Notes: a model not told the origin generated them from the sequence alone. Counted from the stretch's first letter, positions 3,654-10,040 are shown. The stretch is 64,000 nt of DNA from Cyclobacteriaceae bacterium (GCA_013141055.1 JABFRS010000001.1:2967319-3031318); one strand, 5' to 3'. Program-made: numbers and translations.

Positions 3654-3730
3654 CCTTTTTTAGCTTTTAAACAGCATATTTTTAATCAACTTGTTGCATC
3701 AGCATTGAAATTTTCCTTATCCTTGCGGTG

Positions 3731-4264
3731 ATGAGAAAAGCAATTGCCCTCTTCTTTCTCTTTATTATCACGCTAAACATAGCGGGATATTACCTCGTTT
3801 TCGAGGGCTGGAAATATCATAACTCCATCAGCTCCGTTGACGATGAGAGATCCAATTCACAGGAACTAATCATCGAAATACCCATCAGTGTCCCATACGT
3901 TACTCAGGAGAAAGAATGGGAAAAGGCTGACGGCCAGTTTGAATATCAAGGTGAGCTGTACAAAATTGTTAAGCAGAAAATTGGTCTTGATGCCGTTTTG
4001 ATTGCCTGTGTCAAAGATCACGAAGGCAATAGGATTAATCAGCAACAGGAAGAACTTGCTCAGGCATTTTCAGATAAACCCGTAGATGCGAAACAGAATG
4101 TTAAGACAGTTCCGGGTTTCATTAAGGAATACATTTCAAATATTGTATCAGTTAAATCTTCTGTGGTTGGCTGGTCTTTAGAAGTTGCTTACATCTCAGC
4201 ACTTCAATCTCTCGTACCAACATTTTCTCCTTCGATCGTTCATCCTCCTGAACGCATCGCTTAA
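3731..4264 (+). CDS. Hypothetical signal-anchored protein ending in HPP; candidate regulatory upstream ORF
   Basis: N-terminal TM (AIALFFLFIITLNIAGYYLVF), single Cys (IACVKD), C-terminus PSIVHPPERIA. GTG at 3728 is an alternative start. Confidence 0.75.
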   Translation: MRKAIALFFLFIITLNIAGYYLVFEGWKYHNSISSVDDERSNSQELIIEIPISVPYVTQEKEWEKADGQFEYQGELYKIVKQKIGLDAVLIACVKDHEGNRINQQQEELAQAFSDKPVDAKQNVKTVPGFIKEYISNIVSVKSSVVGWSLEVAYISALQSLVPTFSPSIVHPPERIA

Positions 4265-4418
4265 TCGAACATCAGCTTCTTAATTGGTTTTCCTGGTTGA
4301 CAGGGAAATGTATTAAGTCCTCCTGAATGTTCTGGACAACTTTTGTTGTCACCTCTGATCATCAATGCATAATTCAATTGATCGATCGGAATTCCCCGAA
4401 ACCCATTTTTTAACACAT

Positions 4419-5348
4419 ATGAAGAGAGTCTACGTAATTATTTTTTCACTTTTTGCGGTCGGTGCACAAGCACAATCGCTAACCGATGGCTTGCTGATGC
4501 CAAAGGGTGCCTTTTGCACAGGATTTCTATACACCCATGACCAGTGGAAAGACTATTGGGAAGGTGGATTGAAGCGTGATAACGCAAACATCGGAACGAT
4601 CACAACGCAGAGTATTACCTGGATGGGTAACTATGGTGTGACTGAAAAGATGAACATCATTGCGATGGTGCCATTTGTGAAAACACATGCAAGCCAGGGT
4701 ACATTGACAGATATGCAAGGGATTCAGGATTTATCATTGTCCGTGAAGTACAGGTTTTTTGCAAAAGATTTTGCATCCAGCGGATTTCGTGCTTTTGCAG
4801 TAGGAACAGCATCAACGCCACTGACAAACTATACACCGGATCTTTTACCGCTTTCAATAGGAATGGCAAGCACAAATTTCACGGCGCGTGTTACTGGTAA
4901 CTACCATCTTAACAGTGGATGGTATATCAATGCAAGCACAGGTTATACTCTTAGAAGCAACGTTAAGCTTGACAGACCATCCTACTACAGCGATGGCCAG
5001 TTGTATTTTACTGATCAGGTAAAAATGAACGATGTGTACGACTTCACAACTATGCTGGGTTACTATAAAAATGGTATCCAGGCGGAAGCTTTCTATTCAC
5101 AGCAAAATACTTTGGGTGGTGGTGACATCCGTCGTCAGGATATGCCTTTCGTTTCGAATAGAATGAACTATTCAAAAGTTGGTGCATTGCTGATGTACTA
5201 TCTTCCAAAACCTAAGAATCTTGCCGTACGTGCCTCTTTCAGCTATACAGTTGATGGCCGCAACGTTGGTCAGGCCACCACACTGATGGGCGGCTTGCTT
5301 TATACCTTTCATTTCTCTTCTAAAAACGAAACTGTTCCACAGCCATGA
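4419..5348 (+). CDS. Putative outer-membrane beta-barrel (transporter-like)
   Basis: Signal peptide MKRVYVIIFSLFAVGAQAQ, alternating amphipathic strands rich in Y/F/G. ATG 4419 preferred over 4365. Stop overlaps the next start (ATGA). Confidence 0.7.
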   Translation: MKRVYVIIFSLFAVGAQAQSLTDGLLMPKGAFCTGFLYTHDQWKDYWEGGLKRDNANIGTITTQSITWMGNYGVTEKMNIIAMVPFVKTHASQGTLTDMQGIQDLSLSVKYRFFAKDFASSGFRAFAVGTASTPLTNYTPDLLPLSIGMASTNFTARVTGNYHLNSGWYINASTGYTLRSNVKLDRPSYYSDGQLYFTDQVKMNDVYDFTTMLGYYKNGIQAEAFYSQQNTLGGGDIRRQDMPFVSNRMNYSKVGALLMYYLPKPKNLAVRASFSYTVDGRNVGQATTLMGGLLYTFHFSSKNETVPQP

Positions 5349-6913
5349 GATCAATTCATTTTTCAAAAATCGCAGTTCTTTTTTTCGCAGTTGTATTGCT
5401 GCCGATCAGCTGCAAGGACATTGACAACAGTGAGCATTTAGTAGCACAGGCTCCGCTTAGCATTGATGCAAATGCAGGAACATGGGCTCCTGTGTTTTTG
5501 AATCCAATCAATCAGATTGCTGTACCAGCACCGACACTTGTAGGATCAGCTGCTTATCTCGCTGAGCTTGCAACGATCAAAGATCTTCAGAGCAAACTGA
5601 CGCCAGCGCAAAAGAAATCTATTGAGTACTGGAGTGTAGGAGGAATTCTTCGTTGGAATCAAATCTTCCGTGCTTTAGTAGCACGTTACAACCTTCCTCC
5701 AGCACCAAATCCAGATGGAAGCTATCCTGGGCCTGATGCTGAGAATCCATTTGCTGATCCGGGATTTCCTTTTTCAAATCCTCCCTATGCCGCAAGAGCT
5801 TATAGCTACGCATCGGTAGCACAGTATGATGCGTTGAAAGCAGCATGGTATTATAAATATCAATATAACAGACCTGCACCTTACAATGTAGATCCGGCGA
5901 TCCAATCATTGATGCCAAAAACCGACCTGCCTTCATATCCATCAGAAGATGCAGTAATGTCAGGAGCAGCTGCAGATATTTTGAAATCATTATTTCCAGC
6001 TGCTATTGAAGAAATTACATTGAAAGCAGGCGAGCAACGTAGTGCTGCTCTTTGGGCTGGTAAAGCAACACCAAGCGATATTACCGCTGGACTTAACCTT
6101 GGAAAAGCAGTTGCCGCCGTATTCATTGCCCGCGCTGGTGGCGACGGAATGAGAAATGCAATTGGTTCGAAACCATTATGGGATGGCTTGAAAGCAAATG
6201 CTGAGAGCAGACAGGATGTTGCCTGGTTGAGCCAGGACTTGCCTCCTCGTCCTCCGATGCTTCCCTTCTTTGGTTTAAATGGAGTAAATGGAGCTTCGGT
6301 AAAATGCTGGAGCATGACAACTCAGAATATTATCGATGTTCGACCAGTTCCTCCACCAGTTGCAGGTTCCTCTGAAATGGCAAAGGAACTTGCTGAAGTA
6401 AAATTCTATGCTGATAATCTTGACAGAGGTAGACTTGCTATTGTACATAAGTGGGCTGACGGAGTTGGAACTTACTCTCCTCCAGGACACTGGAATGATA
6501 TTGCTGAGGAATACATCCGTGACGCGCGTTTTAGTGAGGTGAGAGCAGCTCGTGCCTTTGCATTGCTCAACATGTCAATGCATGACGCGGTTGTTGCTTG
6601 CTGGGACACAAAGTACTTTTATTTCAATGCAAGACCAGCACAATTGGATCCTACAATCAAGACCAGCACAGGTTTGCCAAACTTTCCATCATATGTTTCA
6701 GGACACTCAACATTTTCAGCTTCAGCGGCAACGGTGTTAAGTTATCTTTTCCCTGCAGGGGCAAAGGATTTTAATACCATGTCTGAAGAAGCTGCTATGT
6801 CAAGATTGTATAGCGCAATTCACTATCGTACGGATTGTGTAGCAGGAACTGAATTAGGAACTAAAGTTGCAGGGTTCACAGTTGCATTTGCTAACGGTGA
6901 CGGTGCTAATTAA
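5345..6913 (+). CDS. Lipoprotein of the vanadium-dependent haloperoxidase / PAP2 superfamily with tandem domains
   Basis: Lipobox LPIS-C. C-terminal domain has KYFYFNARP, FPSYVSGH and SRLYSAIHYRTD; N-terminal domain has degenerate copies of the same motifs. Confidence 0.85.
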   Translation: MRSIHFSKIAVLFFAVVLLPISCKDIDNSEHLVAQAPLSIDANAGTWAPVFLNPINQIAVPAPTLVGSAAYLAELATIKDLQSKLTPAQKKSIEYWSVGGILRWNQIFRALVARYNLPPAPNPDGSYPGPDAENPFADPGFPFSNPPYAARAYSYASVAQYDALKAAWYYKYQYNRPAPYNVDPAIQSLMPKTDLPSYPSEDAVMSGAAADILKSLFPAAIEEITLKAGEQRSAALWAGKATPSDITAGLNLGKAVAAVFIARAGGDGMRNAIGSKPLWDGLKANAESRQDVAWLSQDLPPRPPMLPFFGLNGVNGASVKCWSMTTQNIIDVRPVPPPVAGSSEMAKELAEVKFYADNLDRGRLAIVHKWADGVGTYSPPGHWNDIAEEYIRDARFSEVRAARAFALLNMSMHDAVVACWDTKYFYFNARPAQLDPTIKTSTGLPNFPSYVSGHSTFSASAATVLSYLFPAGAKDFNTMSEEAAMSRLYSAIHYRTDCVAGTELGTKVAGFTVAFANGDGAN

Positions 6914-6990
6914 GATAATAAAGATATCCTGACCGCTGGACACGGGCAGGTACATAATTAAATACAGATGTAGTTAATTATTAATTGGGT

Positions 6991-7024
6991 AAAGCGGAGG
7001 GAGGGGGCTCTCTCCGCTTTTTTT
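6991..7024 (+). terminator. Rho-independent terminator immediately upstream of the TonB receptor start
   Basis: AAAGCGGAGGGAG-GGGG-CTCTCTCCGCTTT followed by further T residues; ends 14 nt before ATG 7039. Confidence 0.8.
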
Positions 7025-7038
7025 AAAAGAAATTCTAA

Positions 7039-9207
7039 ATGAAAAAACTTTTCATATTAATATTTTTTACTGCCTTCGCTTTTCAGGTATTCTCACAGGA
7101 TTCTCTTGTTACCAAAAAACTGGATCCTGTAGTAATCAAAGGAAAGATATGGTCGGATATCATGCGATTGCCGGCTGAACAAGGAACCAATATTTGGGCG
7201 GGGAAGAAAAGTGAAGTGATCAATCTTCAAAATATCAATGCCAATATTGCTGAAAAGACAGGGCGCCAGATCTTTGCAAAGATCCCGGGAGTGTTTGTTT
7301 ATGATATGGATGGAACGGGTAATCAAACCAACATTTCAACCAGAGGACTCGATCCTCACCGTGGATGGGAATATAATATCCGCAGAAATGGAACGATTAC
7401 AAATTCAGACATCTATGGTTATCCGGCAAGTCATTACAGCATGCCGATGGAAGCAATTGAACGAATAGAATTAGTTCGTGGCACTGGTTCACTTCAGTAT
7501 GGTGCACAGTTTGGCGGTATGCTGAACTATATAACTAAAGCTCCTGATACAACAAGGAGATTGGGTTTTGAAAGTGTTAATTCCGTCGGCTCCTTTGGTT
7601 TGATGAGCACATACAACGCCGTTAGTGGTAAGATCGGGAAATTTCAATACAGGGCTTATTACACGAAGCGTATCTCGAAGGGTTACCGCAATAATAGCGA
7701 TACTGACTATGATGCCCAATCTTTATTAGTAAGCTATTCACCTTCCAATAGATTAAAATTTACAATGGAGGTAGGTCGTTCAAACTATGTCTATCACATT
7801 CCAGGGCCACTAACCGATAGCATGTTTAATGCAAACCCAAAACAATCGATACGTTCAAGAAATTATTTTAATCCGGAGATCTATGTTCCTTCATTGAAAA
7901 TGGAGTGGAGTCCTTCTGCAGGAACGAAAGTTCTATTAACAACCTCAGCGGTGCTGGGATACCGCAACAGCGTACAGTTTGACAGACCTGCTGATATTGT
8001 AGATGCAATCAATCCCGCTACTCTGACATATGCAGCCAGACAGGTCGATATTGATAATTTTAATAGTTATACCTCCGAGTTGAGGATTTTACATTCTTAT
8101 TCTTTTATGAATGTAAATAATACCATTGCCGCCGGGGTTCAGTATGTAAATAATGATCTTCACCGTCAGCAGTTAGGTAAAGGAACTACCGGTACTGGTT
8201 TTGATTTAACGTTGACAGAGCCTGCCTTTGGCCGGGATATGCATTTAAAGTCAACGAACGTTGCTTTTTTTGCAGAGAATAAAATTCAGGTTTTGCCAAA
8301 CCTGGTATTGAATCCTGGTGTGAGACTGGAATCAGGAGAATCCGTATTTTCAGGTGTGATCAATTATTATGATCCGGGTCAAATCCCTAACACCATCAAG
8401 CATCAATTCCCGCTTTTTGGAATTAACTGTGAATATAACCTTAAGCAAATAGGTTCTTTTTATGCAGGATTTGCCCAAGCGTACCGTCCAGTGATTTTAA
8501 AGGAGATTATAGCTTCTTCTATTTACGAACGTGTTGATAAAAATTTGAAGGATGCTGCAGGATACAATCTTGAAGCGGGTTTTCGTGGGAATACCTCAAA
8601 CTTCAAATGGGATGTAGGAGTTTTCAGACTGGTATACAACAATCGTCTTGGAAGTCAGTCCGTGCTGGAAGATGGAGTATTCTATCTGTACCGTACTAAC
8701 ATTGGAAATTCAGTTACGGAGGGAGCAGAGATTTTTCTTGAGTATGGAGTGGATTTTGCAAAGGATGCGAAGATTTCATTCTTTACGTCTACTGCATTGT
8801 TTAACGGACGATATACAGATGCTCAGATTAAAGTAGGAGACACAAATGTTTCTGTTAATGGAAATAAACTTGAAAGTGTTCCTGACATTATTACACGTAA
8901 CGGTGTTACTATCCGTAGGTCAGGAGCAAGCGTTTCATTTCTCTACAGTTACACTGGTGAGACCTTTGCGGATGCCCTGAATACACGGAAGCCATCAGCA
9001 AATGGTTCTGTTGGTTTAGTGCCATCCTACGGTATACTGGATATAAATTCTTCATTCAGGGTTTCAAGTCAGCTCATGTTCAGAATCAACGTGAACAATG
9101 TGCTGGATCAGCAGTACTTTACAAAGAGACCAACATTTTACCCAGGTCCTGGAGTCTGGTCTTCTGATGGAAGATCGATCAGCTTTACAGTAGGGTTTAC
9201 ACTTTAA
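7039..9207 (+). CDS. TonB-dependent receptor (FecA-like)
   Basis: 722 aa, signal peptide, plug motifs ISTRGLDP and IERIELVRGTGSLQYG, C-terminal NVNNVLDQQY...GRSISFTVGFTL. Confidence 0.92.
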   Translation: MKKLFILIFFTAFAFQVFSQDSLVTKKLDPVVIKGKIWSDIMRLPAEQGTNIWAGKKSEVINLQNINANIAEKTGRQIFAKIPGVFVYDMDGTGNQTNISTRGLDPHRGWEYNIRRNGTITNSDIYGYPASHYSMPMEAIERIELVRGTGSLQYGAQFGGMLNYITKAPDTTRRLGFESVNSVGSFGLMSTYNAVSGKIGKFQYRAYYTKRISKGYRNNSDTDYDAQSLLVSYSPSNRLKFTMEVGRSNYVYHIPGPLTDSMFNANPKQSIRSRNYFNPEIYVPSLKMEWSPSAGTKVLLTTSAVLGYRNSVQFDRPADIVDAINPATLTYAARQVDIDNFNSYTSELRILHSYSFMNVNNTIAAGVQYVNNDLHRQQLGKGTTGTGFDLTLTEPAFGRDMHLKSTNVAFFAENKIQVLPNLVLNPGVRLESGESVFSGVINYYDPGQIPNTIKHQFPLFGINCEYNLKQIGSFYAGFAQAYRPVILKEIIASSIYERVDKNLKDAAGYNLEAGFRGNTSNFKWDVGVFRLVYNNRLGSQSVLEDGVFYLYRTNIGNSVTEGAEIFLEYGVDFAKDAKISFFTSTALFNGRYTDAQIKVGDTNVSVNGNKLESVPDIITRNGVTIRRSGASVSFLYSYTGETFADALNTRKPSANGSVGLVPSYGILDINSSFRVSSQLMFRINVNNVLDQQYFTKRPTFYPGPGVWSSDGRSISFTVGFTL

Positions 9208-9218
9208 AATTCAATTGT

Positions 9219-9250
9219 TATGGGGGGAGCGCTGCAACGCTTCTCCTATA
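9219..9250. terminator. Stem-loop between convergent genes (probable terminator)
   Basis: TATGGGGGGAGCG-CTGCAA-CGCTTCTCCTATA, 13-bp stem with three G-U pairs on the plus strand. Confidence 0.6.
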
Positions 9251-9302
9251 ATAATTCTTAAAAAAGATAGCTAATAAACAATTGTGGACCGGATATCCAT
9301 TG

Positions 9303-10040
9303 CTATGAATGTTGAGTGATTACCTCACTCATTTGATTGATTACTTTTTCTTTTAAAGCCTGGACATCTGAAAGCAGTAATCCTTCTGTTGAGATTTCTG
9401 GTAATATAAATATCTTGATCTTTCCAGGCTTGATCGTGAATTCCTTGGGTGGCATCAGTTTCCCCGCGTTGAGAATGATCATTGGCAGCAGTGGTTGCTG
9501 AGTTTCAATAGCAATGCGGAACGCGCCGTCATAGAATGGCTTCAATGGTTCTGGTCCGCGATTTTGAGTTCCTTCCGGAAAAATCAAAATCGATATTCCT
9601 CTTTTCAGAACATCCTTCAGGTGATCCATGCTCTTTCTGCGACTTTCATTGCTGGATCTGTCTACGATAATGGTGGCGTTCTTTGCAATCCATCCAAATA
9701 CCGGAATCTTCTTTAGTTCTTTTTTTGCAAGAGGCCGTATCTGGGTCGGCACCGTGAGACAAACTCCCGGGATATCCAGAGAGGAGGTATGATTGCTTAC
9801 ATAGACATACGACTTACCAGGATGGATATTTTCTTTCCCTTTAATTTCATATGGAATAAAATTCAACTTGCTGAAAGTCCACGACCATAACTTTAGGAAT
9901 TGATAGCTGATCGTTCCATATCGTTCGCCAAAAAGAAAGGGAAGGAGAATCCCCGGAAGATAGAGGATCATGAAAAAGGTGAAAACGAATACCACCCATG
10001 CGATGTACAACTTTTCAAATATGATACGAATGAATCCCAA
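9303..10040 (-). CDS. 1-acyl-sn-glycerol-3-phosphate acyltransferase family (PlsC-like)
   Basis: NHTSSLD (HX4D), FPEGT and FYDGAFRIA motifs. Confidence 0.9.
   Translation of the reverse strand: MGFIRIIFEKLYIAWVVFVFTFFMILYLPGILLPFLFGERYGTISYQFLKLWSWTFSKLNFIPYEIKGKENIHPGKSYVYVSNHTSSLDIPGVCLTVPTQIRPLAKKELKKIPVFGWIAKNATIIVDRSSNESRRKSMDHLKDVLKRGISILIFPEGTQNRGPEPLKPFYDGAFRIAIETQQPLLPMIILNAGKLMPPKEFTIKPGKIKIFILPEISTEGLLLSDVQALKEKVINQMSEVITQHS

Follow-up and report, generated by a model that had tools for sequence, protein, structure and literature searches.

The closest described counterparts of the locus analyzed here are of several kinds. Secreted and lipoprotein vanadium haloperoxidases (VHPOs) of bacteria act on exogenous hydrophobic signals (PMC11312541). 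The solved member of the COG4313 outer-membrane channels, Pput2725, is a 12-stranded barrel with a plugged lumen, through which hydrophobic molecules are thought to pass, and its relatives take up trichlorophenol (TcpY) and sphingosine (SphA; PMC4493636). The DUF2946 leaders CutF of Rhodobacter and CruR of Bordetella, together with RAPP/RGPP arrest peptides, are found upstream of TonB receptors (PMC9426467; 10.1101/2025.02.05.636593; PMC12992588). A 64,000-nucleotide stretch of a Cyclobacteriaceae bacterium genome (GCA_013141055.1, JABFRS010000001.1:2967319-3031318; hereafter the window, whose own coordinates are used throughout) brings such parts together at positions 3731-9207, where four genes on the + strand encode, in this order, a protein that we call P1, an outer-membrane barrel, a lipoprotein with a haloperoxidase-like fold, and a TonB-dependent receptor. 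Each part is of a known kind, and it is the combination, the obligate barrel-enzyme pair, and the P1 family that are not described in the literature searched. Nowhere in it were haloperoxidases linked to TonB receptors or to Bacteroidetes.

We read these genes, tentatively and with somewhat less than even confidence, as a conserved outer-membrane enzyme operon in which the barrel and a haloperoxidase-type lipoprotein are accompanied by the receptor as an add-on and by P1 as a cis regulator. The lipoprotein would be an active haloperoxidase-type enzyme and not a plain acid phosphatase, its substrate a small hydrophobic molecule met at the outer membrane or beneath it, and the barrel would pass that molecule in or out, like the characterized COG4313 channels. 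This division of labor is suggested by analogy, because COG4313 channels take hydrophobic compounds and exported VHPOs act on exogenous hydrophobic signals. The receptor may be a lineage-specific addition that imports what the enzyme requires or produces, with its metal or oxyanion cofactor, in the form of a chelate, the most plausible candidate. P1, in turn, would act in cis, being inserted into the inner membrane during its own translation, and the ribosome would pause at an invariant Pro-Pro just before the stop codon. The paused ribosome would then remodel the spacer RNA and so set the translation of the downstream envelope genes, in a manner comparable to the copper-sensing CutF and CruR of Proteobacteria.

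The original prediction, made from the window's sequence, had described four co-oriented genes forming an envelope module that it did not recognize as a characterized system. On these points it has held: all four open reading frames (ORFs) are present on the + strand in the same orientation, the module is recurrent and functionally linked, and the literature searched joins none of the parts. Its interpretation as a whole is partly supported.

The barrel-lipoprotein pair and its partners

The invariant core of the module consists of the barrel and the lipoprotein only, which are near-obligate partners across four lineages. The barrel gene lies directly upstream of the lipoprotein gene at 98 of 101 loci (86/88 in Bacteroidota and 12/13 outside the phylum), and the gap between the two is -4 to about +20 nucleotides (nt) at nearly all orthologous loci, those of Acidobacteriota included; it is this near-universal adjacency and close spacing that single the pair out as the true core. 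In the window, the barrel stop and the lipoprotein start share an ATGA at 5345-5348 (+), an overlap that had been predicted and that is read directly from the sequence. P1 is found upstream on the same strand at 80 of 85 Bacteroidota loci and at none of the 13 others, a receptor orthologue directly downstream of the lipoprotein at 28 of 78 (36%) and none of 12, and all four genes together at 27 of 75 and none of 12. The synteny expected of the module is thus borne out for barrel and lipoprotein and in part for the receptor, within Bacteroidota alone. The gene arrangement exceeds chance.

These figures derive from about 140 related loci gathered in four ways, namely through lipoprotein orthologues in 40 relatives, through P1 homologues in 401 genomes sampled from the phylum, from named genomes found through the lipoprotein, and from the surroundings of receptor orthologues. 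Conservation was counted over the non-redundant lipoprotein orthologues (about 100 loci), and since the genomes are interrelated, the counts are descriptive and do not represent independent trials. The loci outside Bacteroidota belong to Granulicella, Edaphobacter, Tunturibacter, one Vicinamibacteria metagenome-assembled genome (MAG), and one Rhodanobacteraceae MAG. The close homologues have their hosts in Cyclobacteriaceae, Chryseolinea, and Ohtaekwangia, which are soil and freshwater Cytophagales.

The pair has spread through Bacteroidota and Acidobacteriota and into one gammaproteobacterium, and it is common in the soil members of the first two phyla. Enzymatic chlorination of organic matter is known to take place in soils, and the bacteria and genes responsible for it are largely unknown. 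Outside Bacteroidota, P1 is replaced by regulators of other kinds, either a Reg_prop/Y_Y_Y histidine kinase with a LuxR-type response regulator or an extracytoplasmic function (ECF) sigma factor with DUF6596. A longer operon occurs in Chitinophagales and Sphingobacteriales, where a glycoside hydrolase-type GH65 enzyme, P1, a 441-residue haloperoxidase-like protein, a second barrel type, the barrel, and a 515-residue lipoprotein follow one another, often with the receptor.

The sequences suggest that the barrel-lipoprotein pair moved horizontally between soil phyla, with the direction not settled, as the root of the tree is one long outgroup branch. On the contigs of loci L103-L120, the Acidobacteriaceae lipoprotein is 56-59% identical to that of the window, as against 42-46% for a second clade in the window's own genus. 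A quick tree places the 13 non-Bacteroidota sequences in one clade beside Cytophagales clades, with the Rhodanobacteraceae copy next to a Granulicella copy.

A trio encoding a circularly permuted ATP-grasp protein, an Alpha-E protein, and a transglutaminase-like protein follows the receptor or the lipoprotein at several loci (L014, L024-L027, L085, L099, and L110). It was considered as part of the module and set aside as a separate known unit, absent from the window.

The lipoprotein, the barrel, and their predicted chemistry

The lipoprotein gene (5345-6913, +) encodes 522 residues arranged in two bundles, of which the N-terminal one is PAP2-like and degenerate and the C-terminal one is a catalytic PAP2 bundle. 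An AlphaFold 2 (AF2) model (predicted local distance difference test, pLDDT, 86; predicted template-modeling score, pTM, 0.87) allows the two-bundle fold of the vanadium haloperoxidases to be assigned confidently. In a Foldseek search with the model, the top matches are to the iodoperoxidase Zg-VIPO1 of Zobellia galactanivorans (4USZ/4CIT), over the full length (411-415 columns, E about 3e-11), followed by NapH1 (3W36) and NapH3 (8CXL) of Streptomyces, XhnO11 (9L8X), and the fungal vanadium chloroperoxidase VCPO (1VNC); the two-bundle fold is common to the lipoprotein and Zg-VIPO1, NapH1, NapH3, and XhnO11 along their whole length. Acid phosphatases match the catalytic C-terminal half only, the sequence alignment covering residues ~390-505. 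The Zobellia iodoperoxidase (4CIT) is also the best sequence match in the PDB.

The catalytic site, which would hold an oxyanion (vanadate or phosphate), is fully conserved, as judged from sequence. The protein matches the Pfam family PAP2 (PF01569) at E=1.9e-19, above the cut-off, and carries the motifs of that superfamily as K423-x6-R430-P431, S452-G453-H454, and S486-R487-x5-H493-x3-D497; the active-site residues 419-497 correspond to nt 6599-6835. Invariant in 30 orthologues from the four lineages are C419, W420, K423, R430, F447, S452-G453-H454, S486-R487, H493, and D497, among which are the vanadate ligands K, R, S-G-H, R, and H that the lipoprotein has in common with Zg-VIPO1 and other bacterial VHPOs. 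The N-terminal half repeats the catalytic bundle in degenerate form, keeping K171 and R176 and having YPSED in place of PSGH.

Haloperoxidase-type chemistry is rated somewhat above plain phosphatase chemistry, because the pocket Cys-Trp and Phe and the full-length fold both agree with the Zobellia enzyme. A profile alignment places the Cys-Trp that precedes the catalytic Lys (the Trp by three residues) and the Phe five positions ahead of SGH at the same sites as in the Zobellia VIPO, and at the positions of W420 and F447 the acid phosphatase 7F17 has Met/Pro and Gly. We take these two positions to be the halide-pocket sites of haloperoxidases (W350/F397 in CiVCPO and W321/F353 in Zg-VIPO). Zg-VIPO1 and the lipoprotein are both exported Bacteroidota proteins. 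The lipoprotein is only 21-22% identical to Zg-VIPO1 and ~70 residues longer, with extra loops (low-confidence residues 120-142 of the model), and has an invariant Asp after the His (HYRxD) where Zg-VIPO has Ala. Unlike known VHPOs, it is obligately paired with a barrel gene, and it is known solely from its sequence and model.

The strongest competing reading, which we regard as unlikely though of real weight, is phosphorus scavenging, whereby the lipoprotein would be a periplasmic or surface acid phosphatase, the barrel would admit organophosphates or pass phosphate, and the receptor would import larger phosphorylated compounds. All three motifs of the PAP2 phosphatases are intact, HxxxD included, and the class A acid phosphatases (PhoN, PhoC, and the NSAP of E. 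blattae) match the catalytic half, with which they have KX6RP, SGH, SRX5HX3D, and the C-terminal four-helix bundle in common. The hosts, moreover, are soil and acid-soil bacteria, and apo-haloperoxidases hydrolyze phosphate esters, as far as the record of PDB 3BB0 indicates. However, the class A enzymes consist of a single bundle of ~230 residues, with neither the N-terminal pseudo-PAP2 bundle nor the Trp and Phe of the pocket, and the 522-residue, two-bundle architecture with its invariant Cys-Trp and Phe is haloperoxidase-like and departs from that format. Nor do the partners point to phosphorus: the regulators found in other phyla are a Reg_prop/Y_Y_Y kinase with LuxR or an ECF sigma factor and not PhoBR, the published account of the low-phosphate regulon of Flavobacterium johnsoniae names no PAP2 protein (PMC8115612), and the receptor is of the small metal/chelate type and not SusC-like.

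The barrel gene (4419-5348, +) encodes 309 residues including a signal peptide. Its ORF spans 4365-5348, and 4419 is most likely the true start, because orthologues align from there with a good signal peptide (MKRVY...), namely MKRVYVIIFSLFAVGAQA followed by QS, with cleavage between AQA and QS. The protein is, on the strength of its homologues, a divergent COG4313-type barrel. Many of its 3,809 homologues carry PF13557 (58-80% identity among such homologues) or the name "transporter", and 6 of 21 orthologues match PF13557 directly, at best with an E of 1.5e-9. A profile search found no PDB sequence match. The barrel resembles the COG4313/PF13557 channels Pput2725, TcpY, and SphA in size (~290 residues when mature), in its signal peptide, and in the presence of PF13557 among its homologues; it differs from them in belonging to a divergent subfamily that misses the Pfam model and in its pairing with a PAP2/VHPO lipoprotein, which has not been described for such channels.

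So strict a pairing, with translational coupling maintained across phyla, might also be expected if the barrel were not a solute channel and instead delivered the lipoprotein to the cell surface or held it there, an account that goes back to the original prediction and that we consider improbable. Each type of haloperoxidase-like lipoprotein in Chitinophagales has its own adjoining barrel type (the 441-residue PAP2 protein with the second barrel type, and the 515-residue one with the barrel), and C-x-K-D/E is conserved after the lipid Cys in several phyla. In the window, the signal peptide ends in the lipobox ...LLPIS-C23-KDID, the Cys23 codon lying at 5411-5413 (+); the lipobox Cys is present in nearly all full-length orthologues of every lineage, usually followed by x-K-D/E. 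This motif, however, fits the surface-export signal of Bacteroidota (LES, K-(D/E)2) only partly, as in the C-K-D-I-D of the window, and C-x-K-D occurs in Acidobacteriota orthologues as well. Furthermore, the COG4313 barrels characterized so far conduct solutes and have their lumen plugged (PMC4493636), and the second haloperoxidase-like lipoprotein of the window's own genome adjoins no barrel gene.

That second lipoprotein, of 440 residues, is encoded outside the window at G000:C1:35320-36642 (8320-9642 of locus L156, - strand). It lies downstream of a 675-residue exported protein, GH65-like by size, and of ORFs of 1121 and 647 residues, with neither P1 nor a barrel beside it. The second barrel type, seen at L040, L049, and L057, has a mature sequence that begins Q-G-C-V-A, and in the window's barrel type Cys33 is nearly invariant.

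P1 and the RNA downstream of it

P1 (3731-4264, +) is a protein of 177 residues with an N-terminal membrane anchor, a member of an unannotated Bacteroidota family and a probable leader regulating the operon. A GTG at 3728 precedes the ATG at 3731, and the latter is taken as the start because homologues begin with MRK; the C-terminus reads ...SIVHPPERIA. The original prediction had spoken of an HPP leader: the HPP is indeed near the stop of P1, and the short peptide that the term implied gives way to a 177-residue member of a large family. P1 has no match among Pfam or NCBIfam families. It has 55 close homologues, and a deep profile search gathers 2,607 cluster representatives, nearly all of ~180 residues; in the phylum sample, 55 of the 401 genomes contain the family, often in several copies and at most in four.

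The only invariant columns among 32 family members (12-31% identity) are two prolines near the C-terminus. An xPP motif lies 2-8 codons before the stop in 41 of the 42 members listed, and the ORF of the exception runs off its locus. In its AF2 model, P1 comprises a transmembrane helix (2-37), a small beta domain (45-95), a helix (98-113), and a disordered C-terminal stretch of 60 residues. A fold search with this model found no significant structural neighbor.

By analogy with CutF and CruR, we infer that P1 is probably a regulatory leader of the arrest type. Like these proteins and the RAPP leaders, it is encoded upstream of envelope or TonB-receptor genes, begins with a signal for export or membrane insertion, and has a proline motif right ahead of its stop codon, after which comes a structured spacer. 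The regulatory role is supported by the two-component or ECF sigma regulators that hold the position of P1 in other phyla. P1 differs from CutF and CruR in having no detectable homology to DUF2946, in its motif, xPP(E/D/K/Q) in place of RAPP/RGPP or PPP, and in lacking a CxxxC metal site; it is, in addition, a 177-residue protein with a conserved beta domain, restricted to Bacteroidota, in which arrest would be the predicted behavior.

Two other identities for P1 were considered and rejected. As a DUF2946 protein, it fails in that none of the 32 family members matches the domain, even at E<=1. As an MCE/MlaD-like lipid-transfer protein, it draws on top fold hits that are MCE domains and non-significant (E 0.07, template-modeling scores of 0.2-0.3), and hhalign gives a probability of 0.3% for its relation to the MlaD homologue of the window's genome.

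Members of the family lie directly upstream of varied outer-membrane genes, including small and SusC-like TonB receptors, haloperoxidase-like lipoproteins, both barrel types, and a cluster of a CMD protein, a receptor, and a permease of the major facilitator superfamily (MFS). In the last arrangement, seen in other Bacteroidota at L031, L038, and L022, the P1 homologue heads genes for a CMD/AhpD-like protein, a SusC-like TonB receptor of ~925 residues, and the MFS permease; two more CMD proteins follow this cluster at L031.

The RNA at the end of P1 and beyond is structured. The His-Pro-Pro codons (4241-4249, +) lie in the loop of a 9-bp hairpin at 4233-4258, whose arms, GATCGTTCA...TGAACGCATC, occupy 4233-4241 and 4249-4258, just ahead of the stop codon at 4262-4264. 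This hairpin is retained in 8 of 8 close relatives, in which the synonymous positions of the Ile, Val, His, Glu, and Ile codons are identical and the flanking wobble positions vary. In stability the hairpin exceeds synonymous-codon controls within the HPPE subfamily (mean z -1.8, n=15), an effect that is weak over the whole P1 family (mean z -0.5).

A spacer of 154 nt (4265-4418, +) separates P1 from the barrel gene, and gaps of typically 100-200 nt separate P1 from the next gene in what are otherwise tight operons. The region 4225-4445 folds at -60.9 kcal/mol (z=-4.7 against shuffled controls), and 100 junctions between P1 and the next gene give a mean z of -1.77 against controls of the same kind. 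A consensus fold of the 8 relatives keeps a helix GAACATC/GATGTTC in the spacer, and a long-range helix in them pairs P1 codons at 4228-4233 with the opening codons of the barrel gene (4421-4428). An anti-start pairing of fixed position throughout the P1 family was entertained and discarded, its signal being weak and its position varying, and is kept as an observation on this subfamily only. No riboswitch or other known RNA near its gathering score was found in the spacers in a search of Rfam at E<=1.

Translation initiation is unusual in Bacteroidota, and the P1 family may extend regulation by arrest peptides to this phylum. If so, P1 would serve as a marker for finding regulated outer-membrane operons.

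The receptor and the flanking genes

The TonB-dependent receptor (7039-9207, +), an accessory member of the module, has 722 residues and consists of a Plug (PF07715, 2.3e-11) and a barrel (PF00593, 5e-23). It was originally called FecA-like. It is a TonB receptor, as that label held, and a generic small one, judged by its domains to be neither FecA proper nor SusC-like. The domain scan found no STN and no CarbopepD_reg domain, the window holds no SusD partner, and no NCBIfam score comes anywhere near its cut-off (96 bits against 1100 for the FecA model); it is the missing STN and these scores that set it apart from FecA proper. The small non-SusC transporters PirA (5FP2) and YncD/PqqU (6V81/9C4O) resemble it in their Plug, a 22-strand-type barrel, a length of ~720 residues, and no N-terminal extension. 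The matches to them are weak (E 3e-7 to 2e-5), and the link to haloperoxidase-like genes is new.

This link is real but facultative. Where receptor orthologues lie directly downstream of the lipoprotein, they are 45-75% identical to the window's receptor, and gaps of -79 to +23 nt at many of these loci, overlapping or abutting, argue for a single operon in the genomes concerned. Five genomes of the same genus have no receptor at the site: four of them hold only 37-39% paralogues elsewhere and one no match, so that in these genomes the receptor orthologue is at this site or nowhere. Strong receptor matches are found in only 12 of the 401 genomes of the phylum sample. Among the 10 orthologues of at least 52% identity in that sample, 6 adjoin a haloperoxidase-like gene, of the 520-residue or the 450-residue type and in either gene order, 1 follows a P1 of its own, and 3 stand alone. 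The receptor that comes directly after its own P1 is succeeded by an MFS permease, and an additional relative of 44% identity likewise directly follows its own P1. At L025 (G012:C5, 3821-5992), a receptor orthologue beside the lipoprotein is split into ORFs of 121, 312, and 287 residues; it is probably a frameshifted pseudogene, which fits a dispensable receptor.

A terminator-like or attenuator-like hairpin followed by a T-run, which the original prediction had noted before the receptor, is present at 6996-7024 (+) in the 125-nt gap. It is G-rich, with a stem of 6 bp or more and T7, and ends 15 nt upstream of the receptor ATG. This G-rich hairpin with its T-run is kept, with differences in the stem, in L107 and L073, the two closest relatives; elsewhere among the relatives, the hairpins differ or the lipoprotein and receptor genes overlap. 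Separate or attenuated expression of the receptor is possible in the window's genome, and of the two, attenuated read-through seems the likelier, because the 15 nt after the hairpin leave no room for a promoter.

It is doubtful, at a level well below that of phosphorus scavenging, that only the barrel and lipoprotein form a unit, with an independently transcribed receptor for an unrelated substrate and P1 as a structural envelope protein: the hairpin and T7 between lipoprotein and receptor, the absence of the receptor at most loci, the three receptor orthologues that stand alone, and the conserved 177-residue P1 with its folded beta domain and top (non-significant) fold hits to MCE domains would suit such a loose neighborhood, but the room left before the ATG is too short for a promoter, the receptor overlaps the enzyme gene in many genomes, its orthologues accompany haloperoxidase-like genes from two subfamilies in either gene order, P1 shows no detectable relation to the genome's MlaD, and a structural role leaves the Pro-Pro near the stop, its only invariant feature, unexplained.

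The proposed operon of barrel, haloperoxidase-type enzyme, add-on receptor, and cis-acting P1 must in turn be held against several observations that weigh on the other side. PAP2 phosphatases and haloperoxidases share their catalytic residues, so that sequence cannot decide the chemistry, and D497 of HxxxD is invariant, as it is in phosphatases. The window's barrel has itself no Pfam match at E<=0.01. The receptor is missing from 64% of the Bacteroidota loci and from all loci outside the phylum, so that the enzyme does not need it, and in the window's genome a terminator-like hairpin separates it from the lipoprotein. P1 lacks both homology to DUF2946 and the RAPP/RGPP motif, and a single Cys (C93) is conserved in it. 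Pairing between the P1 3′ end and the downstream start is weak across the family (-7.34 vs -6.76±0.21 for permuted pairs) and no different from an upstream-ORF control (p=0.18), with a preferred position that is not constant.

By tracking haloperoxidase-like genes, the receptor becomes a concrete candidate for bacterial vanadium uptake. As far as we are aware, no molecular basis is known for this uptake, which a 2026 review describes as poorly understood (PMC13102585). A bolder joint proposal, for which we see little likelihood, is that P1 founds a Bacteroidota-wide class of membrane-inserted Pro-Pro arrest leaders, about 2,600 clusters in number and without sequence relation to DUF2946, that gate the translation of many outer-membrane operons and, at the same time, that the module is the first dedicated envelope system for vanadium acquisition and the extracytoplasmic halogenation of hydrophobic compounds.

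Beyond the receptor lies an acyltransferase gene, carried by the opposite strand (9303-10040). On the other side of the module, the - strand carries at 2556-2906 an ORF of 116 residues with a signal-anchor-like N-terminus and no Pfam match; it is 46% identical to its counterpart in the closest relative, sited there between a Na+/H+ exchanger gene and rsmG.

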